A stretch of 64,000 bases of DNA, from NCBI GenBank assembly GCA_008632985.1, contig QPGO01000029.1, forward strand, positions 446,874 to 510,873, written 5' to 3'. Positions within the stretch are counted from its first letter, which is position 1. Every line of letters begins with the position of its first letter. This document shows positions 38,007-64,000 of this stretch, piece after piece. This DNA comes from Psammoneis japonica (Eukaryota). The notes below the pieces were generated by a model, which saw only the letters and a list, made by a program, of their open reading frames with translations, did not search any database and was not told the origin of the DNA. A program made the position numbers and the translations under genes.

Positions 38007-38107
38007 GAACATCCCATGGGATGAGATTTGGATCTTGTTCAAGTTGTTTCGACCATCTGCTCTGAACATTCCATGGGGTGAGATTCGGATCTTGTTCAAG
38101 TTGTTTC
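38007..38107 (+). repeat. ~45-bp direct repeat pair
   Basis: tgaacat.ccatggg.tgagatt.ggatcttgttcaagttgtttcg occurs at ~38007 and ~38063. Confidence 0.85.
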
Positions 38108-39528: not shown

Positions 39529-39751
39529 GTTGTTTTTTTTTTTTGCCGGTGCAGTGTAAATTTGCAAATGTTTGGTGAACTGAGTGTCGATTGCAACTCA
39601 GCTTTCCTCTGTCTCTTCAAGCATGTGCCATCTCCGATGACAACTTTACGTTACCGCGAAGCAATGGCGAATTGAGTGGAGCAACTGGCGTGTGACGTCT
39701 AGCACAGTGACAGCAAAAAAACAGTTCAGTTGAGTTCTTAAGCAAAATTGG

Positions 39752-40552: not shown

Positions 40553-40933
40553 ACCAAACTGTGACGTGCGCAGAATGTGTAAAATTACCGTCGCGCCCTC
40601 TACGCACGCGAAATTTTCAAACGCGGCGTGCTGCCTCTACCTGCGCATGGAGCGACGTACAAAGTCATTTTAAACAGACATGCAGACGCGTTGAAATGAC
40701 AAGACGCCTTTGGGCGGTAAAACATGTTTTGAATCTCGGCCTGCTTCTCATCGCCACTGCACTTGTGTGTCCGTGTAATTCAAACGCACGAGCTGGCACG
40801 GCACGCAACACACTTCTACGTGAGAACTCGCACTGAGATTGCCGTGGGATGATCCTCCCTCTGCGGAGACAAAAACAACGCGACAACACTTCCGTCATTG
40901 TGTTTTGAAACACATTTCAAATTGAGACACACC

Positions 40934-42367: not shown

Positions 42368-42589
42368 CAGCACAAAATAACTTGCTAAATTTGTGTAAAT
42401 TTACTGACTTTCTGTACTCAGGCGACTGTGCAGGTGCCTGCTAATTTGCTAGATTTGCGCAAATTTACCGACTTTCTGTTCTTCCTCGTTCCCATTTTTC
42501 GAACCACAACTGGGGCTACGCCTTTCCAACTAATGCTGCAGTTTCGCTGAAAAACACCAACACACTGTGCTGCTAATTTAGAGAGCACA

Positions 42590-43228
42590 CTACACGGCAA
42601 ACGTTTTGCCAGACGTAGAGCTTCTCCCCCCTGACTTGGGGAGTAGACGCGATTTCTTCTTCCAATTCATGGCACCCGACGTCGCCTTCCTCTTCTTCTT
42701 CTTCTTCTCCGATTCATCCAAGTTGCATCTGCAGAGAAATTCCTCCCCGGGCATGATTCGCTTCGTGACTGCCAAGCACCCGTCGTTGTAGAACTCGCAG
42801 TTGTTGTCCGCGTGTTGGCTTGCCTTGATCTTCTTCTTGTCCTTGAACGACTCGGTGGCATCGTTCACGCAGTGCATTCCGAGGTAGAGTGGATGGGAAT
42901 TCTTGTTCCCTGGACCACTAAAATCAAGCGGTTTTGGCTCCACTGTGATGCAGTGGCCCTCGCTGTCATGGATGGTGGAGCAGCACACGCTGTGGTCTTC
43001 TCCAAACTTGCTGTCGTGGTCGTACCACCAGCAGCTCCTCGTCGCACCGGGCACCCTGGGGCCCACGTAGATTCCAACCGTGCTGCCTTTCTGGAACTGG
43101 CACAAAGCAAAAAAACCAATGCCTGCGCCCCTCCATTGCGATGCGCGCAGCTCGCCCACCTCCACCTCCTTGGGGCCTGCGGAGCGAACGGACTTTTCGA
43201 GGCAAAACAACGCAGGTTGAAGTGACAC
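42590..43228 (-). pseudogene. SET-domain lysine methyltransferase (hypermutated)
   Basis: RASQWRGAGIGFFALCQFQKGSTVGIYVG (SET-N GxGxFA..I.EYxG), MHCVND (cf. RxxNH) and VTKRIMPGEEFLCRC (cf. RDI.xGEEL..DY, with the terminal Tyr replaced by Cys). Confidence 0.85.
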
Positions 43229-43234
43229 GGCGCC

Positions 43235-44050
43235 TCATCCAAACATGCACACTTCTGCACTTACTCTCTTCACGAGACAGACCAGTGCGAGCAACCACCC
43301 CACTTCAAAAGCCTCGACGGCGGTCTTGAACACTTTGTTGCTCTTCGGCGCCGAGTCTGGGATGCCCCTCTCGCCGACTTCCGTGCGGTGCCTCCACACC
43401 CACTTGCAGTGTTCGCCGCGAGCATTCGCGACGGCTTCAGGGTCGCTCCTGATGCACCCCAGTTCTCCCAGCACGGGGAACCAGAGGTCGGGATCATTCG
43501 GCGCATCCTTCATCAGGCACATGGACTCCTGGAATTTATCAGATTTTTCGTGCCGCAACACCCAGCCCCACAAGTCGAATGACGGATCGTTGGGGTCCGG
43601 AAATTGCTTTCCTTCTTCTTCCTCTTCCGCCGTTGCTTTCGCGACCACTTTGGCCACGGGCTTGGCTGCCTCCTCGCTTTTGCCGCTGCAAAAAGGTGGG
43701 ACCTCCGGTTTCACAAAGGTGGCCTGATCACCCACCAACTCGATCTTGCAACCGGCCTCAAGGAGCTGCTCGGCGGTGTGACCCAGCTGCTGTGCTTCGT
43801 TCCAACCACAAATTTGAAAGGTTGGCTCCGGCGGCACGGCTTTCTCCCTCTTTTCAGTTTGGGACTGCGACGGCTTCTCCGACATCCTTGCGTGTTCGGA
43901 CTCGACGGACACACCCTCGGCACTTCCCTCGGCGCCAAGTGCAGTCATGGCAGCTGCCGCCGCGCCTTCGGCGCCCATGAGTTCTGCCATGACTTCCGGA
44001 GCTGCTACATCCTCTGCTTTGCCAGACGCAACGATGTTGTCCTCCGCCAT
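43235..44050 (-). CDS. Hypothetical acidic/Ala-rich protein, putative Helitron cargo
   Basis: ORF from MAEDNIVASG with a Trp-rich C-terminal part; no Tyr; no family recognised. Confidence 0.5.
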   Translation of the reverse strand: MAEDNIVASGKAEDVAAPEVMAELMGAEGAAAAAMTALGAEGSAEGVSVESEHARMSEKPSQSQTEKREKAVPPEPTFQICGWNEAQQLGHTAEQLLEAGCKIELVGDQATFVKPEVPPFCSGKSEEAAKPVAKVVAKATAEEEEEGKQFPDPNDPSFDLWGWVLRHEKSDKFQESMCLMKDAPNDPDLWFPVLGELGCIRSDPEAVANARGEHCKWVWRHRTEVGERGIPDSAPKSNKVFKTAVEAFEVGWLLALVCLVKRVSAEVCMFG

Positions 44051-44415
44051 TCTAGCGCCGTGATGACAGAGCTGCACTCACTGCTGTGTGGTGTGCTGCT
44101 TTATTCCAGCCGTTGGCGATCCACATCCTTCTGCGCACGTAAACGTGTGACACTTCGCACCAAATTCCACGTAGCGCGTCTGCACCTGTCTACGTCCGTC
44201 TTCACTACTGTACGCACTACGGTACTGCAGCGCACCCTTTCAAACCTTCATTAATGTTTATTTTTTCCTTCCTTTTCCTTTTCTCTTCTTCTTCTATCTG
44301 GCTGGGAGGAACTGCTGGATAGCCGGCCTTATCAGTACAAAAAGATGAGAAGTTCGGAAGTCCCCAAGTTCCCCTTGTCTCGTCATTTTCTTCTTTGCAA
44401 TGGACTGATGGTGCA

Positions 44416-46241
44416 ATGTTGTCGTCGACCGCTTTGCTCTCCGTCCTGCTGCTAGCTTTGTTAGGCTCATTAGTGCTTGCCCAAGAATGTATTGATAAGG
44501 GCGTATGCGATAGTCACGAACGTTGTCCTGTGTGGGCAGTAGAAGGCGCATGCATAGAGGAGTCGGCTTACATGCTGAAATTTTGCCCCGTGAGCTGTAC
44601 CTTGCCTACAAAGGCCTCCAACGAAGAATGCGTTGATCATCATCCTCGGTGTGAGCTCTTTGCCTCTACTGGAGAATGCAGAAGTAAGAACTCTTATCAG
44701 ATGCGCAAATTTTGTCCGAAGAGCTGCAAGTTGTGCGGTCAGAAAAAAGAACAAGAAGGAGGCTGCGTTGATAACAATGAAGACTGCGGTTTCTGGGCGT
44801 CACGAGGAGAGTGTGACGGGGAGAATTCCGATTTCGTTAGAAAAATTTGTCCGAAGAGCTGCAATTTGTGTTCACCTCTCAAAACCCGCGTCACAGCGTC
44901 AAATCCAACGCTGAACGCCAACCATGAGCTGCTCAAAGCTACTCAAGATTTTGGAAAGCAGCAAGAGGCTACGGGAAGCGAAGCTGCAAAGATAATCGAT
45001 GTGATTAAGAAAAGCATCGCCTACATGGAATCAGAGGCAATGGATCTGCCTGTGGAAGTGTTAGAGAAGTGTCTGAACCGCAACAAGTTGTGCTCATTCT
45101 GGGCAACTATCGGTGAGTCTTGGAATTTTCTCCCTGGGATTCGCTCCTTTTGATATTAACTCCTGTCTAAACGTCTATTCAGGGGAGTGCGAAGGAAATC
45201 CAGCCTACATGACTACAAATTGTGCTCCGGCTTGTCGAACTTGCAATTTGATTGATATGGCGTTGCGTTGCCCTCCGCTGGAAAACGCTCAGCCAGCGTT
45301 GGTGCCGGGAGCGCTAAACAAGATGTTTGAAACCATTGTCAAGACGGCACCTGGAAACCGCACCTTATCACCCGAGGAACGAAAGGAGCTTGAAGAGCAA
45401 GAGATGCCAGAATATACAGTCAATGTTATTTCACGTCCACCTCCAGATGGAGGAGATACATTGCCATGGGTGATTGTCTTTGACAATATCACAACACCTG
45501 AGGAGTGCCAGCACCTAATCGACATTGGTCACAAAGTTGGCTACGAACGGTCTCGGTAAGTTCCAGAGCAATGGGACGATCGCTAGCAGTGGCTTCTGTA
45601 AGATCACAGAGTCCTCACAATCTAGCCTCTTTTCGATGCGTCAGTGATGTTGGTACAAAGCAGTTTGATGGGACATTTGATGGGGTAGAAAGCGATAGAC
45701 GAACATCAGAAAACGCTTGGTGTTCTGTAAGGAATAATTGTCGCACCGATGAAGTAGTGCAAAGGATTCAAAATCGGATTGGAACCGTAACGGGCATCAA
45801 ACCTGAAAACAGCGAGGATCTGCAAATACTCAAGTACCAAGAGGGTCAATTCTATAGATCCCATCATGACTACATTTCTCACCATCGTGATCGACAGTGC
45901 GGACCGAGAATTTTGACCTTTTTTCTTTATCTCAGCAATGTAGAAGGCGGCGGGACTCGATTCAATAAGCTCAACAAGGTTGTCGAACCCAAAGTAGGAA
46001 GGGCGGTGTTGTGGCCCAGCGTCTTAGACAGTGATCCGCTCCAGCGGGATCCCCGTACGATGCACGAAGCCGAACCTGTAAAAGCAGGGAAAAAATACGC
46101 TGCAAACGGCTGGGTGAGTTATTCAATTGGTGTAGACCGTGCAACCGTGAGTCGTTTTTAGTAACTTTCTCATGTATTTTTCCTCCTACACAGATACATT
46201 TGTATGACTACGTCGCTGCCAGCGAGAGGGGTTGCACTTGA
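44416..46241 (+). CDS. Secreted prolyl 4-hydroxylase with ShK domains, multi-exon
   Basis: Signal peptide and ShK repeats (C.D....C..WA..GEC......M...CP.SC..C). P4H motifs RTSENAW, LQILKYQEGQFYRSHHD, RILTFFLYLSNVEGGGTRF and HEAEPVKAGKKYAANGW. Confidence 0.93.
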
Positions 46242-46373
46242 TTTGTACCCTTCTGTGCAAGCTAGACTGCATACTTCAGTATTTAAAAACATAATCTCTA
46301 TAAGTTTCTAGATAACGAGTGAGACAAACATAATGCCCCAGGAATAACAGCCGTCGGTTCGTAGAGAGTGAGT

Positions 46374-48611
46374 CTACCACTCCAAATCTCCATCTGCGCA
46401 ATACTTTGTGAGAACGTTGGAATAGTGCTCCTTCCAGAGCTTGTCGCACTCGTCATCGGTCAGGTCCGCCACGTTGCTGCATTCTAATCGCGCGCTTCGC
46501 CGTAATTCGTCAAACTCAACCACAAATGGGCGAATGCCTCCATCCTCGGCATTAGCGAGATGCTCGTACTCTCCGTGTGTATGCCAGTCGCCCAGAGAAA
46601 ACAATCGAAGCATGGCAAGTCCTTCTTCCGGGATCATTACAGAGTTGTGGCGAAGCATGTGATACATGTACTCTGGTCCCGTCCAAGTAAGGAGGACATT
46701 GTCGAGGCCACAATGCATCTCATACATGCCTTGCGGAGAGTTGTACTGATCGTCAGACTCATCGGGGTTTAGATGGCGGAACTCACCAAAGGAAGCTCTT
46801 CCGGGTGCAGAACAGCCAACCACTCGTGCTCTGGAAGCAATAGTCCAGTCAAAATCATCGTGATCCAAGGTAACATTTGCAGTGACTATCCGGTTCACAA
46901 CGACGCCGAGTTCATGCCTGAAGCAATAGGGAGCATTGAAAGTACAGAATATCAGCAATCGGTCTTCAAATAATGCATACGTCCAGAATTCGTCAGAAAA
47001 ACAACAAGAGTACACTACTTACACTAAAGCGACAAGCTGCATCCAGTCGGGAAGACCTGCGTTTCTAGCAGCCTCTGCAGTTCGAAACTAAGATGGTAGC
47101 AAGCAATACAGCCACAACGTAAGAAAACGTTCTTCCTTTGAATCGCTTTAGCCATACGCACAATTTTCATGACTTACGCAGAGAGTACGGATCGATGGCC
47201 CACAGTAGGTATCGTTGTGGTCCAGCAAGAAGGGATGACAGGGAATGGCTCTCACCATGTTGAGCGCCTCGCGCAGTCCCATTTTCTTCAGGCCAAACTT
47301 GAGGTACCGATCTCGCATGGTCCTGACATATTCAACGGTCTGCTTTTGCCAGCTCTTGCGGTAGTGCTGACGACGAGGAGGGGTGTCACTCGTGCACAGC
47401 AGACAAAGGTCCCGGCTGCTTGCCTGCCAAAAAGCAGGGTCCTTGGAGGTTGTTAGGGTATGAGTGACAGAGTCGGTTCGCAGAAAGGTTCCATGACATG
47501 TCTGTAGCATCCACAGTTCCTTTCGTCGATCGGTTTCTTCGCGTTGCTCATCCGTGTCGGCGACTCTGAGAAGTAAAAAGTTGGACCATTCTGCTGCAGC
47601 CTTGTCTAAACTCGTCGATTCTTCCGTCACGTCATACTCGCTTCCAGAGAGAGCCATGCATCGGCCATTGGGTTCAACCACAACACAGTGTCCTTGTGTG
47701 GTACGGAACTGAATATGGCCCTCTCCGTCGTCGACAATCAGCCACTCGCTCCGTCTCCGTCCTGGAGCAATTCCCACGCGAGTGCCCTCGGGTTCCAAGA
47801 GTTTGACGGGAAGAAAGGAGAGCTGCTTGTCTTGCGAGGATCCGTCACAAAAGATTGGATCGCTTCGATCGTGGCGTCGTGCCCGAAGAGCAATCTGCAT
47901 TGGTACTTTTCGATACGTTTCACCGTCATTGTTGTTGATGTATTGTACCTTTGCCTTTGGCTTCACGCTGCATCCTAGCTGTTCGTAAAAACCAACAAGT
48001 TTATTGTACCGCCGGAGATCCTCTTCTGCGTCCAATTGGCATCGAACTGACTGCGATAATGATGCAGGTCCAGATGATCCATCACTGGTATACCCATATT
48101 TATGGCGAAGTACTGCAGCGGCTTCTGAAAACAACAAGCCACCCAAGTCGCATCCTCTGTACTGCTCCTTGACATCTAAAACGTGAATTTTTGCCTGAGA
48201 CATTCGTATGAGCTCTGACTCGTCTCCTTTAGTTTCCTCCTGCTTTGATTCTGTAGTGTTTTCAGGAGCAGGAGTGCTCGAGAAAATAATCTTTGCAATC
48301 GCACCTGCTCGATCCGATCGAAACAACAAAATGCGTTCCTCCCCCCGATGACGAGCCATGGGACCACCTTCTCTATGTTCCATTCGCAAGGTAAAGAATT
48401 CATTCTGAGCGGAGGATCCTAGAAAGGAGCGTTGTTGTCGACTGTCCTCCTGACTTGAATTATTATGCCCAAACAACTCTGCCAATCCCACCTGGTTCTC
48501 ACCGCAACCCATCACACACTTATGCAGCAAAGCTTCCCACGAACCGAAATGTCGAGCCTTCTTGGTCGTATGGCCACCTTCCAGTGTTCCTGTGCACACC
48601 ATGGACTCCAT
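46374..48611 (-). CDS. Fusion protein: GNAT-like N-terminal domain plus myo-inositol-oxygenase-like C-terminal domain, multi-exon
   Basis: GNAT-like IHVLDVKEQYRGCDLGGLLF...LVGFYEQLG. MIOX-like QTVEYV..M.LREAL, RTAEAAR..PDWMQLVALVHELG, GMYEMHCGLDNVLLTW and EGLAMLR....WHTHGEY. Confidence 0.8.
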
Positions 48612-49029
48612 TGTGGTAAGCTTGTTGCGATTGCACTCTCTTTTCTAATTGCTATCGTTTATAGTTGTCAGATGTCAACGATTGCCGACCATTGCTTTCT
48701 CGTTTCGCGTTTCGCTAGCGCTAACACTTCATGTCCGCATTTTTGTCTTTTTGTCCGAAGAGCTCGTGGAGTTGAAGTATCTGGTATATTTGCTGTAGAG
48801 TTCTACATACACATTCCTACATGACACCTGTACTGAAGGATGGGTGACACGGCTGTTCGCGGAAGTGTCAAAAGTGTGCGCTGGCAAAATTTTAGGAACA
48901 GTTGAAATTCTAATATAATTATTATACATGGAAACACCAATTGTTTGAATAAACCTTGTTCATTCAGATGGATGGCGCGGAGAGAGGTCGTATGTACGTC
49001 GTCCGTGTCGGTAGAGCTCGCGTACCGAT

Positions 49030-49330
49030 ACTCTATCTCTGTACTGTAGAGCTAGGTACAGCAGGGCCCTACTCTAGACTACTCTAGCTACTCTAGAGCT
49101 AGCTAGAGTAGAGTCTACTGTACTCTCTCTAGTAGCTAGCACTCTACTCTCTCTACTCTACTAGCTAGCTAGAGTAGTAGCTCTACTCTAGAGAGTAGCT
49201 ACCGGTAGACCTGGTTCTAGCTAGAGTAGTCAGAGTCGGTCATGGTGATTGAACTGACATCTCTATCTCTCCAACCTTTCTTTTTTCTAGCTCTAGAGAG
49301 AATCCAGTACAGCATTATAAACCTTTCTTT
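49030..49330. repeat. Low-complexity CTAG/CTCTAG/TAGAG-rich intergenic tract
   Basis: Dense actctag, ctagctag and agagtag words. Confidence 0.8.
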
Positions 49331-50085
49331 TTCCTAGGTCTAGAGAGAGACTCCAGGACAGTATTTTTTTAATTTTAGCAACAAGCCTCTCCGCGAGGCG
49401 AGAGCCGCCTCCGCCGCTTTCTGGATTCTGGAATACAGAAAGTGGATAGTATAGTTCAAGAACAGGTTGGGACATTCTTGAGAGACTTCAGTAGCTTCGT
49501 ACATAGGTAAATCAAACTCGCTTGAACCTAAGGACCTTTCGTCTTTCGTCTATCTGTAGTAGCAGAATGAAATATCCGAAACAAGAGGAAGCATCCACTC
49601 CACCATGGCGTGCATTTTTCGGGTAGCGAACTCCATTAATGTGTCAAGCTCTATATCTTATCCAAAGCCAGTATTATGCATTGTGGTTTCACCATCGTTT
49701 CCAATACCGGTATCCTTTTGTGAGAGCCAAGGGGGAGATGCTCAATCAGAACAAGCTACATAAGCGTTCATCAATACAGTTTGAAGTTAGTACGACTAGT
49801 GTAGAGCTAGTTAATTACGGATTGTTCGCCTGAGTTTTTTTCCACAATAGGCACGAACAGAACTTCACTTGAAACAAAAAGATCTATACATAGTTGCTAT
49901 ACTAACTAGCTGCTGTCGACATTTCTGGTACATTTTCAGCTCAGGCTGACCACATTAAAAAAAAAGAATACAAGCCACTCGTGCAAAGCCACACGGGCAA
50001 GGCAAACTTTGCTGGGCACGTTTCGATGTGAAAGCGCCTCATTATACAAAGCCACTACCAACAACACAGATGAACATGGTCAATT

Positions 50086-51793
50086 CTACGCATCGCCCTT
50101 AAAGTCGCCAACCGGAGTGACAACACTCCCACCCCACGCCGCACTCGACAAGAGCTGCAGAGGAGAATCGTCACGATAGGCCTGGATCCGTCCATGCGTA
50201 TTTTTGCATTCAATCAGTTCCTCAACAAACTTGTCAATTTTGGCACGTGTTACATTTGGCATGACAACCACGTGAGCAATATCCTCCTCACAAGCCAACT
50301 GCCACCTCTTGATCAAGGTGTCGTCCATGGGTCGCTCCAAGACAACCGTGGAACTCAAATCGTTGAGGCGACAAGACAAACCAGCCTCTGTGATTTTATC
50401 ACGAAGGTATCTAGCCGTCTCCATGCAATGACTGAAAAGCAACAAGGACAATTGAGACACTATTCATCAATTCAGCACTCGGCGCATTTCACTCTTTCAA
50501 AATCAAAACTTACATGACATCTCGCTCAATTCCACCAATTCCCTTCTTCCGGAGACTGTACCATAGGTAGAGTGCCGCTTGTCCGTTTCGGCTTCCCATA
50601 ATTGTCGTATCGACGCTATTGAGGTAATCAATACGCTGCTCCACCTTTTTCACGTGCTCCTTTCGGCTTAGCGCAATACCACAAGGCATGGGACAACCCA
50701 ACATTTTGTGTCCACTCACGGCAATGGAATCAATCGGCTTGCGAAATGACACTTCGGGGGCAAAATCGACAAAGGGCATCATCATGGCAAACAGAGCGCC
50801 ATCGCAGTGAATGTGGTATCGTTCACGAGGGATATCCAGCATTTTGAGTATCCTCAAGATGCGGTCCAGGTTATCCACCGCACCCTTGACTGTCGTACCG
50901 ATATTGACATTGATAATGACGGGCCGGTCTCTGTTTTTCTCAATTTCTTGAGCCAACAAATCGTAGTCAATCTCGCCCATGGGAAGCGTGGGGATGGATT
51001 TGGCATCCATGCGATAATAGCGAGCAGCCTTGAAGATGCTGTAGTGCGTCTCCTTGGAGGAATAAAGAATTCCATCCGGGTGGCACTCTCGAGCCAACAA
51101 AATACCGTGGAGATTTCCTTCTGTACCACAGGTCGTGACGTAACCCCAGTAAGAATCGGGTTCCATCTTCCAGAGTTTCGCAAAGAAATCAATAACAGCG
51201 CACTCAAACTGACGAGAGTGAACTCCGTAGTTGGACGTGATGAAGGGATCACCAAGATTGTTGATGGAGTATTTCATAAACTCGTAAAGCTCCTCGTGGT
51301 TGTACATGAGGTTGTAAGGGTATCCAAAGTGCACAGACGACTTTCTCTGAAGCATCCGATCATAGGCGGATAAAATGTCGCTTTCATCCGGAATCGACAG
51401 CCGTTCATCCTCAGTCGTGGGAATACGGACCGAATCGGTCGACAGCTTGGCTTCTTCCTCGGCTGTAAGTGGGTCAACAATGCCTTCTCCGGCACCCCAC
51501 GCGTCAAACACGGCCCAGGGAGACGGAGTTCCGGATTTAGATTTGTTGGAGGTAAAATCCTGCACTTGCTCGGCCGTGTTGTTGTCGAGATGAAACTCAT
51601 TGTCATGACTCTCCTCTTCTAAAATTGACTCTTCTTCTAAAGGAGCGGTGGACTTGGTTCGTGTTTGAGTCAGGCCGGCCAATGACCGAACAAATGCTGA
51701 AGAAACGCTCGCGGGACTTGCGGCAGCCACGGCTTTCGGAGCAGACAAGGCGGTTCTTGCCGCAGCGCGGCGGAGTAAAGCGGCAGGAAGCAT
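50086..51793 (-). CDS. PLP-dependent group II decarboxylase (serine/histidine decarboxylase family), 2 exons
   Basis: HFGYPYNL, INNLGDP, YWGYVTTCGTEGNLHG, HCDGAL, SGHKMLGCPMPCG (PLP lysine) and TIMGSRNG. Arg/Ala/Ser-rich presequence. Intron ~50433-50512. Confidence 0.93.
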
Positions 51794-52513
51794 GATGGTC
51801 AAAAGGCTACAAGTGAAAGCTTCTTTTGATTACAAGTCACAACGCTGGAGGTGCGTATGGAATTTCTTGAGCGTGGTAAAAGATTGCAGAGGTAACACTG
51901 CATGCAGAGCAATGCGTCGTCAGCGTTTTGTGAGGTTGAAGAGGTGCTTGGTGCTTCGCGTGATGACCCGGCCGATTTGATCGGCCAGCATCGAATGCCG
52001 CCAAGCGGGAGACGGACGTACTCCTACGATGACTCTCTACCGGTAGTTCCTAGAGATAGATAGATAGCTTAGAGAGTATTCCTTCTATCATACAGTACTT
52101 CTATCTACGGAGCTGGTGCTTCCGTCCGGCACTTACTGGTCCGGCACGTGGCACACCTTGGTCATTCCCGCCATTTTTCTGCTGAATCTGATTGGACATT
52201 CGACGTCATTGGTCGCTCTGTGAGTCGTGCCCAATTTTTAAAAATTGCCAATCAGTTGCCAAGAGCAAAAATCCATGATCATTTCATTCGCATCATCTTT
52301 GACTTTCCTTGGACATCCGAGCAAAATACTGTATACACTGTTTTTGACTTCAGAGTCTTGCAGTCAGAGATTTCTCTCCGAGGCGCTCTCTCAGCAGAGA
52401 GGAACTCGCATCAGGGTTCGCATCGTGATGCGCGTTGGCACATTTCCTGCGCGAGGCTTCTCATTTTCGAGCATTGTCCTGTTTCTTGCTTTTGCATCAC
52501 CAGCTTTGCGACG

Positions 52514-53434
52514 ATGCGTGTACCTCGTTTCTTTTTTCTTATTCTACTGTGCCTGTCGGGTTCGCATGCCAGTGTGATCTTTAAAGCGGCATCTTTGACC
52601 GATGCCCAGCGAAAGCCGTTTGTCGTCGACAAGCAGAAAGTCGTTTTGGCAAGCAAGGGGACCAGCGCTCATGAGAGCGTGATGCAGCTTCGCGGAGGCG
52701 CGGGTCCTCTCGATCCACTCAAAACGGCCAAGTTCTTGACGTATTTCATCTCCTCCCAAGCACTCTTGATGAACCTTACGCCGGGCTTTTTGTTTGATTG
52801 GTATGGCGGATCTCCAAGTCCGTTGAACCTTCGTTTGGTTCAGACATATGGTGTTGGCATACTCGGCGTTCTCATCATGGCTTATTGTCTCTTGATACGA
52901 GACACTCCGTTGTCAACAGCGTATCGAATGTCAGAAATACCGTGGACTTTCGAGTGTCTTCGTAACCTTTGGAAGGAAGATCATGGTTCTGCCGTGGGGT
53001 TTACGACGAGTGGGCAGGTCGTGGGCTTGACGACATCCGCATTGATCATGTATGCCACGACCCAAGACTACGCCGAAACTGTATTGAAAGCCGCCACTGT
53101 GTTTTGGGTGTTAAACGGAGCATACTTGATTGCACAGCCAGAGCAAGCGGCCAAAATGTTGTGGGGGACGTTTCCCACCTTTGATGCCACGTCCACTCTC
53201 ATGACGCGCATGATCGGATTCAACATGTTGGCCCACAGCGGATTTGCGGGTTCCATACTGTTTCAGAAGCTTGATAAATTGACAGCATTTGGTATTGGAT
53301 ATTCCAGTTGGTTTATCAAACTGATCAGTCTGCAGCTCATCACTCAGGACGTCCGAAAGGCTGGATTTGACAGCCGCTGGATGTATTTCTGGATATTGTT
53401 TCACGGTGCAATCGTTGCTACGATCTTGCTCTAG
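52514..53434 (+). CDS. Signal-peptide-bearing multi-pass membrane protein
   Basis: MRVPRFFFLILLCLSGSHAS signal, QLRGGAG motif and ~7-8 hydrophobic segments. Confidence 0.75.
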   Translation: MRVPRFFFLILLCLSGSHASVIFKAASLTDAQRKPFVVDKQKVVLASKGTSAHESVMQLRGGAGPLDPLKTAKFLTYFISSQALLMNLTPGFLFDWYGGSPSPLNLRLVQTYGVGILGVLIMAYCLLIRDTPLSTAYRMSEIPWTFECLRNLWKEDHGSAVGFTTSGQVVGLTTSALIMYATTQDYAETVLKAATVFWVLNGAYLIAQPEQAAKMLWGTFPTFDATSTLMTRMIGFNMLAHSGFAGSILFQKLDKLTAFGIGYSSWFIKLISLQLITQDVRKAGFDSRWMYFWILFHGAIVATILL

Positions 53435-53792
53435 AGATGCCAAGCCTGGCTCTCCAGAACTAGAGAGCGTGTAGGTAGAAAGATTACCAAGACTTTTACT
53501 CTTAGCCTGTTTTTTTTCCTTTAGAGTAGTTAAAGCCAGGGGACTCGCTTCATACCTTCCTTCCGATGAGTCGATTTAAAGGCCGGGAGGAGGAATGGGG
53601 CGGAATCGCTACTACAGCGAGAGGGCGCGGTGAGTTCCTGTGAACGCCAGCCTCTTCTACAATAATCACCTCTAGTTCTCGCTGATTACATGCGGCAGCA
53701 TTCGGAACAGATATCTTCCAACAGAACCAATCGAGAAGCACACTTCATAGTAACATCTACCGTTATTATCCAATTACACGACAGCTCACTGT

Positions 53793-55871
53793 CTAACGGT
53801 ACCTCACTGGCATGAAAGCCATGAATCGATCCAGTAGCTCAGGTTGATCTTGCAACAGTTCCACAAGCGATTCTTTTAAATTGGGGATCGAGCGATAACT
53901 CTTAATGCAAGACGCAATTTGAACCATAACATCCTGGCCCATCTTTTCCTTAACATCTAGCAGCAACTCCTTTGCGGAGACACGTCTCTCCTGGGTATCC
54001 CCAATCAGCTCCGATGTACTTGTCTTGGACCTGTGAAACAACATGGCACAACCATACAGGAGAATGTAAGAAAAGAATCAGAAGTGCGACCGAACAAGAA
54101 AACGACATTGCCGTACCAGTCACCAGTTTTCTTGTCGTCGCCACTTGTGCTTGCCCCGCTGCTCTTCTCAATACGACTGGGAGCAATGCTATCAAACTGC
54201 CTTCGATTTTCAATGCATTCCATCATGCGTACTGCCAGCTCCCGTTTCTGTTCCTTGTATCGGCGAAATTGGTCGGGTATCATGAACCGGTAGTGATAGT
54301 CAACGACATCCTTGAAGGTCTTTGTGCCCGCCATGCTTTGCTTCCCAATTTGCCTTAGTGAACCGGAATAACGCCGAAACCCAGTCTCAAACATTTCCTT
54401 CTCATGCGAGGTCCAGATCGTCAAGGCGTCTTGGGGGGACGCCTCCAAGGCCTCCAATGCCGCCTTTGTGTCGAAATTGTGCTTGACGAGCACCGACATA
54501 ACGACGTCCACCTTACACGCCCTTGTGAACTTTGCTTTACCTGTCAAAGAGGACTCAATGTCGTGCGGTGGATACGAAACATCTTTCGTAATGTCGTTTT
54601 GATCCAAATGTTTCCTCAGGATGCCCGACGCTTCTTCAAAGAAGACCTCCAATGAATCATCCTCTATCGCGTCTCTTTTCCACATCAACACCGGATTCCT
54701 CGTCGTTCGTGGCTGATCTGGATTACATGTCGGAACCGCAGCTTGAAACTCTGGTCCAACATGAATTCGACCCTCCGTAGTACTACCCTCTGTCTCCATT
54801 GGCCTATCATCCTCGCCCGATGAGCTAATGTCATCGTCGGAAGATATGGTATCGTTCGTTGGACTGCTACTGGCGCTGATCGGATCCTCAGCACGAATGG
54901 GAGAGAAAGTCGACCCACCACTCTTTTGGTGGCTCCCCATGTAGAGAGGCGAGCTCACAAAGTTGCTACGCTTGGGGCTGACAAGAGATCCGCTCTTGCC
55001 GTCTTGGTCAATGCGAGCCTTCTTTGGCGAAAGGTACTGCGTTGCCGAATCGCCAGCTGGACGCTTGCGCTGCATCGCCTTGGGAGTTCCTATCATGTTG
55101 GATGATGGCCATTGATCATTTTTTCCGCCGTAGGGCGTCAAGAAAACTTTTCCTAGATCGGATCCTTCCCCAAACGCAATGCTGTACCTACAAACAAAAG
55201 TTCCGTAGGGAAGCGAAGGTACCGGGTCCAAAGCATCATCTGCTACTGGTTTACGTTGCAAAACAGTGCACTTTCCGAGAATTGTAAGCACGTCGTTTTC
55301 ATCAGCTTGATTACTGAGGATGAGTTCTCGATTCGTCATGGACGAGAGCAACTGCTGACGCGTGACGGAGGTGCCTGAAAATGTGGTGGGCAGCTTGCTA
55401 ACATCGTCTTTCTGCGTTTGGGCGAGAAGCGAGGATTAAAGTGAGGGTACGCCCATTTTATATTATGAATCTTGTAAAAACCGAGAATGTGAATAACCTT
55501 ACCTTGAAGAACCATGTTGTTCGAATCCTCATGCACGCCTCTTCATCATCCGGGGATCCGGCTTTCGGATCATGCCACATGCGATCTACCCTCGCCACAA
55601 ATGCATCCACCGTTTCCCGTTGTTGTTGACGTGGAGAGTAGCAAATAATCTCGTCCGCAGTTCCGTAGAGCGACCGCTCTTTAGAGTCTCCTTCATCCCC
55701 ATTCTTCAATAAAACGCAATCTCCCACCCGCACAATCGACTTGATACCGTCTACTATCACTTCCAGCCCAAAGTGATCAAGGAGTCCATCGGACTTAGAA
55801 ACAACGCCTTTACCAATCCAAGAAAACGAAAGCTCGGTCCCTGACGAGGTAGTAACGCTACCAGGGGACAT
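53793..55871 (-). CDS. BAH + ELM2 + SANT chromatin co-repressor-like protein with a C-terminal PAH-like helical domain, multi-exon
   Basis: VRVGDCVLL..FVARVDRMW..IRTTWFFK (BAH), IHVGPEFQAAVP (ELM2), WTSHEKEMFETGFRRY..DVVDYHY (SANT) and ELLQDQPELLDRFMAFMP. Confidence 0.85.
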
Positions 55872-56229
55872 ATTCTATCAGTTTAGCTTCTAGTTGGATC
55901 CACCTAAAGCACTTCAGGAAGGTTTCTCTCTACCGTAGCGAGGTTATCACCGGTGTCATACCCAATACCCACAGCGGCACAGCGGCTCTTCGAGTCGGTA
56001 TTTCTCGTGGCACAAATTTGCGTAGTTTCTACACAAATTCCCCTCCGGGCCAATGCAACACGCCCGGACGACACAACTTAAAACTCCGGCTTGGGACAGG
56101 TCGACCGACGACACCCGGACGAGAACCGAGAACCCCTTCTTGCGACACACGGCCGCTCGACCGAACACTGTGCACCGTTTTCATCCATGAGGCATGTCTT
56201 GTTTTTGGTGCTTTATCCCGTACAATCAG

Positions 56230-57190
56230 GTGCCACCACTGGAAGCTCTAGTGCAAGGCATCGAGGAGGGAACCGCAGCAGCATCATGCGCAACCCCGAC
56301 CGCTCCCACAAAGATTGCACAGCAACAGCGGCGATGATGCTTCTCCCATCTTTGGGTCACTCCCATCATCACAGAGGGTTCAATCAGATGCCAGGGAAGA
56401 AACAAGAAATGACAGCCCACAGGGCGGAGCCAGGTGGGATCTACGAAGTGCTTCGACACCTGGCAGACCTCTGCGAACGGTGTGAGATCAGGAAAGGAAA
56501 CAAGGCAGTTGTGGGGTGTGGCTGTGACAATGGTCTGTGGACATGCTTCTACAACGACTTCAATGACCCAAAACAATGGAACCATGACTTGATGCAACCC
56601 ATGTGCAGAATGATCCAGACCCTGCCAATGCTTGCAGTGCCAGAGGAGGTGGACGGCCACAAAGACAAGGAAGCGCCGCTTCAAGAACTTGCTCCGATGG
56701 AACAACTGAACGTGGAAATGGACCTCCCAGCAAAGGTGCCTGGGAAGCACTTCACACAGAACTGGAGTTTAGATGCTGTGAAATGCTGGAACAACAAAGA
56801 TGGCACATGTGTCTGTGTGGTGGAGTTCAAACAACCTGGGATCATCAATGAATGATCGGACACATCTGCAGGCCCCCGGATGTGCAACACTGGATGGAAA
56901 AGCCAGGGTGTGAACCAGCACACCCTCCCACAGATTGGGAGGCACTTGGCAAAGCCATGCAAAGAGTGCCAACCTTTTGGAAACTCTGGCAACCCAAATG
57001 GGCAACCGGGTTTGCATCTGTCAATGGGGGCATGGAAAGGTGGAAGACTCTGCACACCTCAGCTTGCCCAAGATGTGGGGAACTGGAGGTGAATGTTGAA
57101 CATTTTCTTCATTGCCCAGCTTCATCAGCATTGTGGACAAAAAGATGGATGCGCTGGACACATGGTGAGTGTGGTGCATCAAAAAAATGA
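56230..57190 (+). mobile_element. 3' remnant of a non-LTR retrotransposon (RNase H plus CCHC zinc finger)
   Basis: MTAHRAEPGGIY..L..LC...GCDN and VDGHKD...EQLNVEMDLPAK (RNase H), followed by CPRCGELEVNVEHFLHCP. TpA-depleted. Confidence 0.75.
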
Positions 57191-57199
57191 GGCCACTGC

Positions 57200-60100
57200 C
57201 TGCCTTGCCAGGTGCTTGCTCAAAACCTTTGGAAATCTCTGCCAAGTGTGTTTTTAAACCAACCCAGGGGTGGCCAGAGCAGCCCATTGACACCTTGGAA
57301 AATTTGTGCTGAAGCTGCTGTTCCTGGCAGCTTGCATGCAACTGTCTGGGAAAATTTAGGATGCGGCAGTGCTGCAATTTGGGTGCAGGTGCAAGTGGCC
57401 ATCTGCTGACTTGGAGACTGTCAGTGCATTCATGGACTTGTTGTCTTTTCCTGCCAGCAGCAGACAAGCCAAGTTTCACCCCATTTGTGGGCTTTCGTTG
57501 AGTTTGCAGAGTTGTCTGGCCATTGCCAGAAGTCAAAAAGAACTTTCTGTGGATGGTGCCAGGAAGAAACTGGTGAGTTGGCACACACTGCTGGTGTGCA
57601 CAGAGCTGACATGACAGATTCTCAAACAAACAGAGTTGGGCAGCTCATCTGCTTTGCAGCTGCACTTTGCCAAGAAGCTTTGAGGAAAGCTTTTTGTTTG
57701 TCATGAGTGGAGAAGTTCACAAACACATGTGTGTGGAGCAATCATGCAGCTCACACAGCCAAGCATTTCTCAGCAATGAAGTGCACTTTTGCTGACTCAG
57801 AGATGGTCTTACAATGGTTGTCAACAGCAATCTTAGAAACTGCCCTCAAGCTCATCTCTGAACTCATCATGTGAGGCACTTGGCAGCTGGTGCTGTCTCT
57901 GTTTTTTTTTTTTACTGCCATGCTCCCCTGCAAGGGTGGCTTTCTTGCTGAGACAAGGAATCTCTCACACCTGTGTGCTGCTTTGGTTTCTTGCTGTTTC
58001 ACGTGCATGTGTCCCTTTCCAAATGATGATCTTGGAGCCATCTCCAGCCAAGTTTGGAGCTCTTTCATGTGAAGCAGCTTCTCTCCTTGCAGAATGGCAC
58101 CCCTCCTCAGATCCCAAGTGTGCTGGCATGGCTCATCTGCACTTGCCCCTTTTCCTCTTCTTTTTCAAGGGCATGGGTTGTTGGCACACCAGCAACCCTC
58201 TGACGTGACTGAGGTTGGTTGGGCAGCCCCTTTCAAGCATTGTCAACTGGAGCTTGGTGGCAAAAAATGGGGTTTGCAGATTGTGTGTTTGGGGCTCAGA
58301 GAAGATTGGCTCCTGTTTGTTTTTTGTTTCTGCACTCAAGCTGTCTCTCTTGTTGTTGCCACCAGCACAGCACAGTGCCAATTTCTGCACTGTGGTGTGT
58401 CTCCATCAAGGGGCTCATGGAACCACCAAATCCCCAGCTCTGTGACTTTGCACAGGTGTGCATTGCTGAGGCAAACCAAGGGTGGCACACATGTGAGTTC
58501 ATAGATTGGAAACCTGCAGAGGTGATTTTGGACATGTTTTGTGTGTGCTCTGATGTGTGCACAGTTCCAACCCAAGGAAAACCCTGTTTGATGCTGTGGT
58601 CACACTCATCAGTCAGAGCAAGCAACAACTCCAAAGTCAAGAAAGTCAACCCTCTGAACCCAAAAGTCAACCCACAGGACCTGAGCTTCCTGCTGGCAGA
58701 GTTTGTCTTGCACCTTGTGTGACCAGCTCCAACTTGAGCTGCAGAACATCAAGGTGAGCACCAACACAAAGGGGTGCCTTCCGCAGTGTTGCGGCAATTG
58801 CCAGTCTTTTGTTTGGGCTCACCCACCAGGACAACGTGCACTGAGGCCCACAAACCACCTTGAGCCATTTGCTCTCAAAATGCGCCAGGCCTGGCAAAGC
58901 AGCAACCCACCAAATTTGCTCAGCACAGCCCAGAAGGTCTCACAATCAGCCCAGCTGGTGGCTGGTTTGAGGCTGAAGTCATTGTGGGGAGTGCACCATG
59001 ATGGGTGGTTTTGCCAAAGGAAAAACTCTTTGTTTGCTTTGTTTCTTGGAATCATCTTTCTTGCCCTGCTTGGCTGCCAATCATTGACACCTTTGCCAGC
59101 TGACAAGGCTGTTCTTTTGTTGTTGTTGTTGTTGTTGTTGTTGCTGCTGCTGCTGTTGTTGTTGTTGTTGTTGTTGTTGCAACAAGAACACAACAAGCAG
59201 GTGGCCAAAAAGAGGTGATTGGGTCTGGAGCTCCAGCTCAACAAATGTGTTGAACTGACAAGCCAATGTCACCAAAAGGGAATCCTTTGAGGTTTCCTGT
59301 GCTGCTTCTTGTTGCACTTGCTTTGGTTCCCATGGCAGTCATGGTTTGTCTGCAAGCTCTTAACAAACTTTGATCTCAGTGCAACACAAAGGGTGCCTGC
59401 TGACACCACAATGCAACTTGTGTGAACCAGATGATTCACTCCAAAGAGTGAGATGCAAAAAGGTTGGTGAGATCAGTGATGGGTGCACATTTGTTTCCAA
59501 ATTGTCATCCCATCCACCATGTCAGGATCCAAAGCATCTTCTTTTCGGCTCAACAAATCTGCTTCTGGGTCTCTCACATTTCCCACTCATTCCAGATGCT
59601 CCAACAGGCTCCTGATGCTCGAAATGATGTTCCACTGTTCATGTGGTCCATGTCCATCAGACTCATTTTGGTCTTGTGGCTCACCAGTCTGCTCAAGACT
59701 CTTGGTGTCACCACTGCCACTTGCTTCAGGATTTTCAACATCCTGTGACTCACATTTGTGTGTGCTTGCCCTCATTGTTGTGGTCAATCATGTCATCCAA
59801 TGCATGTGCAGCTCTGTGTGGACTCTCCACAAAGTGCTCCACATGAGCACAACAACATTTCTCTTTCTTGTTCTTGTCTTCCATGTGCTCAAGCTGGTCC
59901 ATGACTCAACTGTTGATTGTCTCTGGAGTCAAGTCCAGATGCACCATGTCAGTGCAATGCCACCTCTTGAGGAGATGTGGCTGTCAGGTCTCAAAGCAAG
60001 AAAATGTTGCCAAGTTCCTGGCATCACAAACAACTCCTTCAGCATCCATCACAATTCTGCATCAATCTCGTGCATTGACAGGATCCAGCTCCTGGAACTT

Positions 60101-60950
60101 CAGGAGGGGACCACAAGTCCCATTCTTGCTCACACCAAAGGTGGTGGGAAATCTGATGTGCAGTTTCCAACATGACTCATTGATGTCAGTCTTGTCAAGG
60201 TGGAGCTGATCTTTTCCTCTTGCTCTGGCTGGCCCACCACTTGGGCTCTAAATGCTTTTCACCTGCTGGAGGTTGATCCTTCACACAGGTGCAGAAGTTG
60301 ATCTGCCTCTGGGAATCAGCTCCCAGGACTTGCCAAAAATCTTCAGTCTTGTGTGCCTTGGTGGCACGCTCCAGTGTTTGGGGTGCAATGCCAAGGACAG
60401 AGAACATTGGTGTGGCACCAGCAGTGAGACATTGTCTTGCACTTCATGACTGGCATCCATTTCCATCAAAGTGCCCACCAGTTTCTTCATTTTGTGGCAC
60501 CTCTGCAACCACAGGGCTCTCCATGGGCCCTTGTCTTCCCAATCTCCACACTGGGAAAACTGATTTGGATCCTTGACCCTCATCCTCTCACACAGTCTCT
60601 TGACTTCACATGCATCAGCAGCATTGCAATGAATGTGAGGACTGGGGTGGAATGAATTTCCCTGTGCATTGCTCTCATGCAATCCTTGGATGTGCTCCTC
60701 ATTGCACTGTGTCAATCTCTCATGTTCCTGCAGCTTCTCAAGGTTGTGGAACCTGCCCCAATGGTCCCACGGTTGCTGCTGTGTGTGGATCTCATCTCTG
60801 TCTCCCAACAGTTGTTGACCACCTTGCAGGATTGATCTAAAATCATGGTTGTCAATCATCTTTGTTGATTGACTGCAGCCACATGTTGTGGTTGACAATG
60901 AACCATTTGGTTTGGTGTGCCAGGGATCTGCCACCCACGTGTGTCAGAAT
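57200..60950 (-). mobile_element. Highly degenerate retroelement-like remnant (possibly DIRS-type RT near 58300-58700)
   Basis: Extreme TA and CG depletion. Weak RT-like trace SAGFQSMNSHVCHPWF...WGFGGSMSPL. Confidence 0.35.
59117..59180. repeat. (TTG)n/(CTG)n trinucleotide microsatellite
   Basis: A run of ttg with a central ctg block; reads as poly-Q or poly-N on the minus strand. Confidence 0.9.
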
Positions 60951-61019
60951 TCTTGTTTGATGTCACAAAGAACAAGACTCACACCTGTTGTGCTTGACGT
61001 CAACAGCCCAAGATGGCTT

Positions 61020-64000
61020 GTTTGAACTTTTGGAACTTCTTGCCTTGCAGCAGCTTGGTCATGAAGTCCCCCAGCATGTCATTGGCAGGAGAACACTGAA
61101 CTCTTAAGTTGCCCTTCTTTGTCTGATTGGCAACAAAGAAATGCCAAATGTTGAGTGCTTGCAATTGCTTGCCGGCACTCTTGTGCCATCAGCTTCCATT
61201 GGGGTGGTGGCACTCTTGTTGTCCTGGTGCAGAATGCTCTTGTCAATTGGATGCCCTTGGTGTTCCATGAACAGCTTGGTCCACCGTGTCACATTCATGG
61301 CATTGTCAACTCCAACAAGTTCAGCTTCTGTGCTGCTTTGGGTGTTGAGCTTCTGGTGCTTCAAAATGGCCTGCACTGCTCCACCACCCATTGTCACAAC
61401 TCCTCCAGTGTGACTCTTGAATCTTGGAGGAATGTGCTGCAAATGATGTGCCCACGTGCCACTTGACAACTCTGAGGTCCTTCGTGCTTGAGCTCTCACT
61501 TGTGTGCACAATGCAGTGATGGTGAGATGTGCATCCTTTTTGCCTCTCTTGGACAGGAACAGTCCCTTGGCCACCCATTTGTGGAAGGTCTGAGCATTTG
61601 CATGAGACAGTCTTGCACCACCAGTTTCAAATGTCTTCTCTCTGGCTGGCACCACAGCAGAGTCCATGCTCTTTGTCTTTTTTGGAAGCTGGTCAGTCAT
61701 CTTGCAATTGCAGTCTGCCATGTCCACTTTTGCTTTGTCCTTCTGGCTGAAGTCTGGGGTCACACTGAGACAGTCATGTCTCTCCCCTTGCACAGTTGCA
61801 ACTTCACCATTGCTGCCATGCACCTTGTTTGGCCAGCTCAGGAACTCTCATCATTTGCTTTTGGTGGGCTCTTGTGGCTTGACAACAGGTTGTCCACATG
61901 GAATTGAATGGCATGCTGCTTGCCATTTGACTGTGTGATTGATTGGCAATGGGACAGATTGCATGGGTTGAACTTAAACCCTGTCTTTTCCAAGTCTTTG
62001 CAGAGCTCATTGCACTGCAGTGTGGCCATGATTGACATGCCATGGATGGCTCTGACAACTTGGATGTAAAGGACTCTCTTGCCTTTCTCCAGGAACACAT
62101 GATGTCCATGCAGGTTGGGATCGATGCTCACTGGCATGTCCACTGACACTCCTGTGATCTTCATCACAATCCAGTCTTTGCCTTCTCCAGCATCTCAGTC
62201 TGCACAAATGCACCTGGAACATTGGTGCTCATTGCTCATTTTGTCATGTCCTTCATGGTTGTCAACAATTGCCATCATCAACAACATCCACTTGGGGGAT
62301 GCAGCAGACTGGCTGACTTGTCTTTGTCTGGCCATTCTTGGGTTGGTTTGCCCCATCACAGACCATCTGCTTTTTTGTGTGACCGTCTCATTTCTTGGCG
62401 CAAGGCCACCATGGCCTTGATCCTTTCAGTTGGAGCCATGTTCTTGACCAATGCTGGTGCAAAACACATGTTGTCATGCAGCTGTTTGACTTCTTTCTCT
62501 GAGGCATCATGCCCCTTCTGGCCAAATGCTTTGAGGCACACTCATGAAGCAAATGTTGCTGGGCAAAGCATGAGCCCTCTCCACTTCAGAGTCTGTCATC
62601 AACCTCACACATGAAGTGTGTGAGCACCATTGCTGTTCATGCATCACACTCTACATTGAACTTGGGTTGGGACTCAGGTTGGCATGGGAACAAAGGTGCA
62701 CTTGCAGGGATTCAATGACTTGTCCATGTGCAGGTTCACAGCACAGTGACTGCTTTTGGGAGAATCAACAAAACATGGTTACAGGCAGGTGCTGTTGACA
62801 CCAGGTGCTTCCAGGGCCATTGTGTTTGTCTTGTCATTCTCAATGGAAATGACAAGTTTCCCAAACTTGAGCTAAATGTGTTTGTTGCAGTCCAGGTTTC
62901 TTTGTTGCATGACAGTGTGTGAACTGCAGGTGTCAGAAATCCCTTCTTTTGCTGGTGTGCATGTTTGACATGATGACAGTGTTCTTCATTGTGGCTTGCT
63001 TGCACATCAGTTTGGGTGTCGTCATGTGTGGCATGTGGTGTGTGGTGGCTCAGGTTTGCTCCTTGATGGTCTGAATGCTTCACCAAACTTTGGGAACATG
63101 ATCCTTGGCATTCACAGAGATGAGCTCTAGATTTGCACAATTTGCAGCTTCTGCTGGCATGTCCTTGAACTTGGGATCACACTCAATGAAGTCAATCTTA
63201 AAGCAATGGGGCCATGTTGCACTGTTGGAGCATCACATTGTCCAAGGCTTTGCAAACATGTTCATGCTTCTTGGACTTAAGTGTCACACTCAATCAGGGC
63301 TTGATTGTCTTGCCAACCGTGTGCAGCATCAGTGCACTGCTGCATGCTTCCACAATGTCGGTCATGCCTTCTCTCTGCTTTTTGCATGTCTCAGGTGGCT
63401 GGCATGTCAATGATGTTGTTCCTCTCATGAGAATGCTGCACATGCTTGGTCTTGCCTTTGAGTGCATGCATTGGTGGATCCCACATCGCCACCATTCTGT
63501 CCACATCCTCAGGCAGGATGGGTGGGTTCTTCAACTGATTGGATCACAAAAGCAATTTGAAATCCCTTGCACTGGGTGTTCCAGCCTTGCTGCATGGTCT
63601 CAATGCTTCCTCAGCATTCACCACCTCTTGTTCAGCGCAGCCTTTCATGCTCTGTTTCACAGTTGAAGCAACAGCTCCCAATGCACTCCTGTGCTTTTCG
63701 TTGGTCTTTTTCACAACCTTCTTGTCCTTTGACAGCATGCTCACATGCAACTCATCTTCTTGGAGTTCTTTTGCATGGTTGAAGAATTGCTGGCTTGGTG
63801 CAAATGTGTGCAGTCCAATGCTGTTGACTTTGAACACTCTGACCTGTTTGCCAGCAGTCTTCTCATCCAGTGGACGGAACTCATCTGCCACTTGGTTGTT
63901 GCACACAATGCAGCACTTGCTCTTCACATCCTTGAGACTCAGGATGTTGGCTTTTGTGTTCTGCAATCTGAGCTCCTTGTCACCCCACACTGGCACAGTG
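61020..64000 (-). mobile_element. Degenerate copia pol (second family), running off the window end
   Basis: ANILSLKDV, AGTPSARDFK, KAFGQKG..KEVKQLHD, VLYIQVVRAIHGM, FHVDNLLSSH (RT), KSHTGG..QKLNTQSSTEAELVG, HQDNKSA and MLGDFMTK.LQG (RNase H). Confidence 0.88.

Follow-up and report, generated by a model that had tools for sequence, protein, structure and literature searches.

TA-erased blocks and the mobile elements they hold

The window analysed here, a 64-kb stretch of the diatom Psammoneis japonica (contig QPGO01000029.1), comprises gene-dense eukaryotic DNA and three blocks that are poor in the dinucleotide TA and rich in CA and TG (approximately 19001–23000, 24236–44000, and 56251–64000). 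The block edges were sharp within 250–500 bases, at about 19000, 44000, and 56250; at the last of these the observed/expected ratio of TA fell from 0.45–1.13 to 0.09 or less in 250-base bins. The third block (56251–64000), which runs past the end of the window, has TA and CG nearly erased and CA and TG doubled. Between 57001 and 64000 there were 18 surviving TA steps against 450 expected from base composition (ratio 0.04; 96% gone), together with 31 CG (413 expected), 757 CA (374 expected), and 892 TG (497 expected). The mutation was confined to the transposon blocks, and the host genes were spared (TA observed/expected 0.4–0.9).

The first block contains an inverted-repeat element (20521–22323), whose arms (20521–21277 and 21563–22323) are 82.5% identical. 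The arms differ in 122 columns, 48 of which make up 24 CA/TG double differences. Between the first and second blocks, about 1.2 kb (23001–24200) showed near-host TA (observed/expected 0.43–0.50). The second block begins with a TA-depleted Helitron on the minus strand (24236–29536), in which Pfam identified a PIF1-type helicase open reading frame (ORF; 24236–27280) and a Helitron_like_N ORF (27785–29536), with tyrosine contents of 0.2 and 0.0%. Next comes a copia element on the plus strand, bounded by a 5′ long terminal repeat (LTR; 29517–29792, 276 bases) and a 3′ LTR (36351–36626) that are 95.7% identical. Its frame of 1701 codons (30955–36060, plus strand; RVT_2, E 6e-27) is open yet hypermutated, with 0.8% tyrosine, 3.2% cysteine, and 4.8% histidine, the medians in 120 homologues being 3.9, 0.9, and 3.55%. 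Since no reading frame gains a stop codon when TA becomes TG or CA, dead elements keep long, tyrosine-poor open frames. The remainder of the block (36627–44000) is TA-depleted repeat DNA with a TA ratio of 0.16–0.25 and an abrupt end at about 44000. Tandem repeats were observed in this DNA at 37171–37802 and 41056–41250 (units of about 125–250 and 99 bases), and two of its ORFs (38359–39528 and 40853–42367) had no Pfam family and 0.3–0.4% tyrosine.

The third block holds a degraded Ty1/copia polyprotein remnant on the minus strand (61006–63999), which extends from the integrase to the RNase H end and is split over several frames. A phmmer search with the ORF at 61104–61847 (minus strand) returned 3101 proteins at E ≤ 1e-3, and RVT_2 was present in all five of the homologues tested (four of 1100–1750 aa and one of 722 aa). 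The region 61006–63999 was tiled by tblastn with 29 homologues of at least 1000 aa. Pfam searches with 18 ORFs of the 57–64 kb element gave no convincing family; the profile of the window's other copia family had no match in it, and tblastn with five proteins of that family found none there. The copia element at 57–64 kb belongs to a different family from that at 29517–36626. The same block carries a long (TTG)n/(CTG)n microsatellite (59110–59190), which reads as poly-Leu, poly-Gln, or poly-Asn depending on frame, and 45 ORFs of at least 80 aa overlap the 8 kb of 56000–64000.

CG was strongly depleted only in 19501–22500 and 56251–64000 (observed/expected 0.07–0.6). The younger copia element, the Helitron, and the LTRs kept CG ratios of about 0.8–1.0 despite heavy TA loss. 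Since CG loss occurred only in the oldest blocks and the young elements had lost most of their TA and no CG, the TA process must be separate and much faster. The CpG loss is probably a second, slower process, the decay of methylated cytosine.

The host gene region at 1–18000, which served together with 44001–56000 as the host baseline, includes WD40, PIP5K, and Myb genes and has a TA ratio of 0.4–0.9 and a CG ratio of about 1. The host proteins were nearest to those of diatoms. The named matches of the PIP5K ORF were only diatoms (Cyclophora, Cylindrotheca, Pseudo-nitzschia, and Fistulifera; 40–46% identity), and the nearest atlas cluster of the PLP-decarboxylase ORF lay in Bacillariophyta. 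On the evidence of its protein matches, the window is part of a diatom nuclear genome. One DNA sequencing run contained 95% of the words of the window; it is probably the source sample and thus adds no independent support. Within the baseline DNA, an ORF of 1227 codons without a Pfam family and a following ORF with a UvrD-type helicase C-terminal domain (together 12732–17793) had normal TA and may represent an unmutated mobile or viral element. Self-BLAST also revealed a perfect 44-base palindrome in host DNA at 9475–9519.

Flanking context of the surviving TA steps

The first bases of the 18 TA steps surviving in 57001–64000 are located at 57255, 57357, 57810, 57834, 57913, 58502, 59361, 60249, 60838, 61105, 61975, 62067, 62652, 62780, 62873, 63128, 63199, and 63278, the last TA ending at 63279. 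Written with one base on each side (Y, pyrimidine; R, purine), 12 were YTAR (six TTAA, three CTAA, two TTAG, and one CTAG), four were YTAY (three TTAC and one CTAC), two were RTAR (one ATAG and one GTAA), and none was RTAY. This full listing agreed exactly with the by-eye count of the initial annotation, which had put about 18 TA into the same four classes as 12, 4, 2, and 0. The YTAR share was thus 67%, compared with 15.8% in host DNA and 17.9% in copia relatives.

Four null models were compared with these counts. Against the host baseline (30 kb, 1122 TA; YTAR 15.8%, mixed contexts 53.1%, RTAY 31.1%), the chi-square p was 1.2e-8 and the binomial p for YTAR was 1.7e-6. Host coding DNA may represent transposons poorly, and therefore a second baseline was added, consisting of 80 metagenome loci akin to the copia element at 29517–36626 and not to the copia family at 57–64 kb (20,539 TA; 17.9, 50.5, and 31.5%); here the p-value was 2.3e-7, and 7e-6 for the YTAR binomial. 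A first-order model built from the dinucleotides of the block itself predicts 30% YTAR and gave p 0.0014. The fourth model treats the survivors as TA that arose afresh from CA or TG; it was rejected, because the NCAN and NTGN contexts of the block give 24% YTAR (p 1.7e-4).

The initial annotation had suggested that NTAN contexts be compared between transposable elements and host DNA, and this comparison, made inside the window, revealed the YTAR shift in six TA-depleted segments. The counts of YTAR, mixed, and RTAY steps were 5/5/0, 13/17/7, 27/25/4, 28/44/26, 30/34/6, and 12/6/0, and the binomial p for YTAR ranged from 0.012 to 1.4e-8 against host DNA and from 0.021 to 2.2e-7 against the copia relatives. 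The 10 TA left in 20401–22400 comprised five YTAR, five mixed, and no RTAY; the 70 TA of 36627–44000 comprised 30 YTAR, 34 mixed, and six RTAY (binomial p 7e-8 against host). Across the six segments the YTAR excess strengthened as TA loss deepened. This confirmed that the survivor bias was real and beyond chance.

Among the 80 copia relatives, no locus exceeded 34% YTAR or had less than 18% RTAY, and their TA content was ordinary (observed/expected 0.48–0.96). None of the 80 fell below 0.48, that is, no TA-erased relative was found in the metagenomes with search peptides that contained tyrosine and thus disfavoured hypermutated copies. As both peptides held tyrosine, this result is not informative on other diatoms. 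Four of the metagenome loci (L003, L004, L008, and L022) had the lowest TA (0.48–0.53), low CG (0.20–0.44), and high CA plus TG (1.44–1.56), and L004 had the lowest RTAY share of the four; this pattern could be mild hypermutation or merely CpG decay.

The size of the preference was estimated with a decay model that sets the loss rate of a TA step equal to the sum of the rates at its two A positions. For the copia and host baselines, the fitted purine/pyrimidine rate ratios were 0.30 and 0.185, respectively, and the two-rate model was favoured over a context-free model in likelihood-ratio tests (p 6e-25 and 2e-28). A four-rate fit gave T:C:G:A = 1:0.42:0.25:0.13 (copia) or 1:0.46:0.24:~0 (host), with p about 1e-12 over two rates. 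The fitted preference is graded, with the next base in the order T > C > G > A and pyrimidine over purine roughly 3- to 8-fold. When the six segments were pooled, survival relative to baseline was 0.06–0.08 for any class containing TAT, 0.16 for GTAC, 0.23 for CTAC/GTAG, 0.31 for GTAA/TTAC, 0.40 for CTAG and for CTAA/TTAG, and 0.47 for TTAA, which survived best. In the two blocks with the heaviest erosion, the ratio of TTAA to CTAG among surviving YTAR steps was 10:1, and CTAG was largely lost. Sorted by the base after the TAY triplet, survival relative to host was 0.33 for TACG, 0.09 for TACT, 0.18 for TACC, and 0.06–0.23 for TAT followed by any base. There was also a hint that an A two bases downstream protects: in a hand count, tyrosine codons with a following A were kept in 7 of 18 cases and the others in 6 of 38, and TA-N-A contexts also survived best.

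Changes in inserted DNA and the polarity of their products

The two copia LTRs differed in 12 of 276 columns, all of which lay at eight TA-derived sites, and all the differences were transitions. Four of these sites showed TA against TG or CA and four showed CA against TG; the 3′ LTR had TG or CA at all eight, and the 5′ LTR kept TA at four. No change was found outside the TA sites in the 276 columns, and the many CGs of the LTRs were intact. Because the LTRs diverged only at TA sites, the hypermutation took place after insertion and at the DNA level. The Helitron, which has no RNA stage, was equally affected, and RNA editing was therefore ruled out as the main source. The TA loss is thus shown to be specific, mutational, post-insertion, and at the DNA level. 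Five TA are common to both LTRs (TTAG, TTAC, TTAG, GTAG, and TTAG), and four of the five are TTA; the statement in the initial annotation that shared survivors are mostly TTA was correct, as was its reading of LTR site 29538 as hit, since the 5′ LTR has TTAG where the 3′ LTR has TCAG.

The loss was also restricted to one step, as only TA was depleted among the NA dinucleotides; AA, CA, and GA were not (AA observed/expected 1.06–1.38 in 58–64 kb). A runs test on the order of TG and CA in the strongly eroded block gave z = −0.03, with no long one-strand patches, although overlaid events would mask them. The hit sites look independent of one another.

The survivors cannot separate a rule of A followed by pyrimidine from a rule of purine two bases upstream, because both spare YTAR; the products can. 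Columns of conserved tyrosine were collected by comparison with homologues, 60 for the copia frame, 27 for the Helitron helicase, and 150 distant ones for the degraded copia element, with conservation cut-offs of at least 60, 60, and 50%, respectively. There were 85 such columns, of which nine (now F, W, S, or Q; three of them in the frame-shifted tail) were dropped and 76 were assigned by hand to YTAY or RTAY according to the preceding base. The copia frame offered 54 columns and the Helitron 19 (13 now Cys, five His, and one Tyr). Conserved tyrosines had been replaced by cysteine or histidine in 63 of the 76 columns. At YTAY sites there were 24 Cys (TGY), three His (CAY), and eight retained Tyr; at RTAY sites there were 19 Cys, 17 His, and five retained Tyr (Cys versus His by context, Fisher p 0.0027). 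The 24:3 split corresponds to a pyrimidine/purine rate ratio of about 8 (95% interval 2.4–41). These products fit a change of TAY to TGY on whichever strand offers TAY, and they support this change independently of the survivors. Conserved codons beginning with A behaved similarly: after T, A had become G in 9 of the 10 informative codons with a pyrimidine next and in 3 of 7 with A next, compared with 11 of 211 when the codon did not follow T.

Proposed mechanism, alternatives, and related systems

We propose, with a probability of about 0.65, that TpA is converted to TpG or CpA in inserted transposon DNA by a process that is sensitive to the base immediately 3′ of the attacked A and favours TAY over TAR. 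An A:T to G:C transition would occur at either A of a TA step in chromosomal transposon DNA; the A in 5′-TAY-3′ would be changed several-fold faster than that in 5′-TAR-3′, and the position two bases upstream would have no visible effect. With one A per strand, there would be two good targets in RTAY, a single one in YTAY or RTAR, and none in YTAR, in agreement with the earlier remark that YTAR is the sole context lacking TAY on both strands. As YTAR would lack a good target, survivors of deep erasure are expected to be mostly YTAR, above all TTAA. The TAY preference put forward in the initial annotation is supported by the product polarity (24:3 versus 19:17) and by the decay model, and it is refined here to a graded order of the next base. 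Its caveat that the preference is not absolute also holds, with purine-flanked A hit at about 0.1–0.3 of the pyrimidine rate. As to the underlying reaction, an enzyme directed at silenced mobile DNA may deaminate adenine to hypoxanthine in the DNA itself, and the pocket of this one enzyme may dictate both the preceding T and the following pyrimidine.

The closest described system is that of the chlorarachniophyte Bigelowiella natans, in which, according to the available text of a preprint, the DNA of integrated giant viruses and virophages undergoes a TpA-only A:T to G:C hypermutation (Mettrop et al., bioRxiv 10.64898/2026.01.13.699255). According to the same text, the signature was measured in real time in mutation-accumulation lines at a rate about 1000-fold above background, the TpA-poor coding sequences were enriched in reverse transcriptase and DDE domains, and an ADAT2-like adenine deaminase was proposed. 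As far as that text goes, both cases involve only TpA to TpG or CpA, on either strand, in foreign or silent regions, with normal genes spared; the diatom window showed TpA-only products, confinement with sparing of host genes, and action on integrated DNA. The cases differ in the host, a chlorarachniophyte there and a diatom (stramenopile) here, in the targets, which are transposons here, and in the depth of erasure, with a TA ratio of 0.04 here compared with the 0.45 reported for the nucleocytoplasmic large DNA virus (NCLDV) region of B. natans (Mettrop et al.). The main text of the preprint, in the form available, says nothing on neighbouring bases (the words "context," "flanking," and "trinucleotide" occur 0 times).

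Several observations weigh against the proposed rule. All the data come from one 64-kb window, and the baselines were borrowed, one from host DNA and the other from related elements in other organisms. The ranking of T over C, which rests on survivor counts against these borrowed baselines, was absent in the tyrosine codons, where about 8 of 48 TAC and 4 of 17 TAT were kept (hand count). The preceding base used for sorting the tyrosine columns is the present-day base, which may itself have changed, and with an 80% conservation cut the copia frame alone gave 9:0 versus 9:4 (p 0.11). Single hits at mixed non-coding sites in the LTR and inverted-repeat pairs (n = 4) were split 2:2: CTAT to CTGT and GTAA to GCAA followed the TAY rule, and GTAA to GTGA and ATAA to ATGA did not. 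At three LTR sites of mixed context, both LTRs had been hit and carried opposite products, which indicates that the disfavoured strand is not rarely hit, though only opposite products are visible. Finally, every observation is strand-complementary, a change of TAY to TGY being a change of RTA to RCA on the other strand.

This complementarity equally fits an explanation with the same process and context in which T is attacked: the T in 5′-RTA-3′ would be modified (e.g., to 5-hydroxymethyluracil by a TET/JBP-type enzyme) or mis-excised and repaired, and read as C. Dinoflagellate DNA is reported to carry hydroxymethyluracil preferentially at TpA. We know of no T-modification pathway that yields clean T to C transitions at such a rate. 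All 12 LTR changes were transitions, and the available text on B. natans counts 230 of 231 mutations in hypermutable regions as A to G or T to C, its authors favouring adenine deamination (10.64898/2026.01.13.699255). We regard an attack on T as unlikely. Error-prone repair synthesis at silenced chromatin, without any base-modifying enzyme, is a further candidate. Polymerase eta makes A to G errors at WA (W, A or T), TA being the hotter form. The lack of AA depletion in 58–64 kb, the absence of transversions in the LTRs, and the loss of 96% of the expected TA argue against such synthesis, which seems quite improbable.

The bias might also not be made by the mutator at all, if the survivors were fresh TA formed from CA or TG or reflected the original composition of, or selection on, the elements. 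The small number of survivors in 57–64 kb (n = 18), the borrowed baselines, and the 30% YTAR already predicted by the block dinucleotides would allow this. On the other side stand the fresh-TA and Markov tests (p 1.7e-4 and 0.0014), the similar shift of six segments of differing element types, the absence of any unmutated relative above 34% YTAR among 80, and the polarity of Tyr to Cys or His, which is independent of the survivors, and we consider this origin of the bias very improbable. A rule that depends on a purine at position −2 from the mutated A (5′-RTA-3′), and not on the next base, predicts the same YTAR survivors, and the hits GTAA to GTGA and ATAA to ATGA fit it. It also predicts YTAY to YCAY (His), whereas 24 Cys and three His were seen at YTAY, and RTAY loss (36 of 41) was no more than two TAY targets predict. 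Provided that the homologue-based ancestral calls are sound, the upstream-purine rule is rejected by the tyrosine-codon polarity and retains hardly any probability. ADARs favour G after the edited A, and TAG is relatively spared here. An ADAR-like RNA editing of double-stranded transposon transcripts, fixed by reverse transcription, would share the U favoured before the edited A, as stated in the available text of the B. natans preprint (10.64898/2026.01.13.699255). For most of the signal such editing is refuted, since the two LTRs of a single insertion differ only at TA and with both products, and the Helitron and inverted-repeat DNA element are equally affected; its probability is close to nil.

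The initial annotation had likened the context to that of TadA/ADAT substrates. In the portion of the report available, bacterial TadA edits tRNA-Arg and mRNAs at TACG, not TAT, in an RNA loop, and shares with the diatom pattern the T before and C after the edited A and the frequent recoding of Tyr (TAC) to Cys (TGC) (Bar-Yaacov et al., 2017; PMC5630033). Here, loss of TAT equalled or exceeded that of TAC, TACG was among the better-surviving TAC contexts, and the substrate is chromosomal DNA. Fungal ADAT2/3 editing has U before A. The fungal Tad2/Tad3 (ADAT2/3)-Ame1 system, as far as its available description goes, is a eukaryotic tRNA deaminase that gained a second class of substrate, with UAG as the preferred triplet in mRNA hairpin loops (Feng et al., 2024; PMC11087585). 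In the diatom elements, TAG was changed at about one quarter of the TAT rate, and CTAG and TTAG were among the survivors. Of the suggested resemblance, the T before A stands; TACG was not favoured, TAT was lost at least as much as TAC, and TAG was relatively spared, so the analogy may be called weak. Repeat-induced point mutation (RIP) of fungi converts CpA to TpA, which enriches TA and makes stop codons. The diatom process resembles RIP in its dinucleotide-specific transitions in repeats, action at the DNA level, sharp edges, and destruction of mobile elements, but it runs in the opposite direction, erasing TA and enriching CA and TG, and makes no stop codons.

To our knowledge, the sole previous report of hypermutation that erases TpA is a preprint from 2026, which deals with an unrelated alga, and we know of no enzyme for it. 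Our literature searches found no report of diatom TpA hypermutation and no account of a flank preference. The diatom case appears to be an instance, in a new lineage, of a very recently described hypermutation, and the neighbour-base rule appears to be new. The rule can be matched with the in vitro preferences of candidate deaminases: T is required before A, a pyrimidine is favoured after it, and position −2 has no effect. It argues against simple moonlighting of a TadA-like or fungal-type ADAT2/3 enzyme, and against ADAR. It also provides a better detector elsewhere, as RTAY is lost before YTAR and Tyr to Cys changes exceed Tyr to His unless a purine precedes the codon; the long open frames of hypermutated elements could otherwise pass as intact genes to gene callers. 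We tentatively speculate that diatoms and chlorarachniophytes might share a previously undescribed DNA adenine deaminase that acts on silenced mobile DNA and has a pocket for 5′-T-A-pyrimidine-3′, a specificity that would differ from those of TadA (TACG), fungal ADAT2/3 mRNA editing (UAG), and ADAR. If this is true, the TAY fingerprint would be a handle for the enzyme of an ancient and widespread eukaryotic genome defence by A to G editing.

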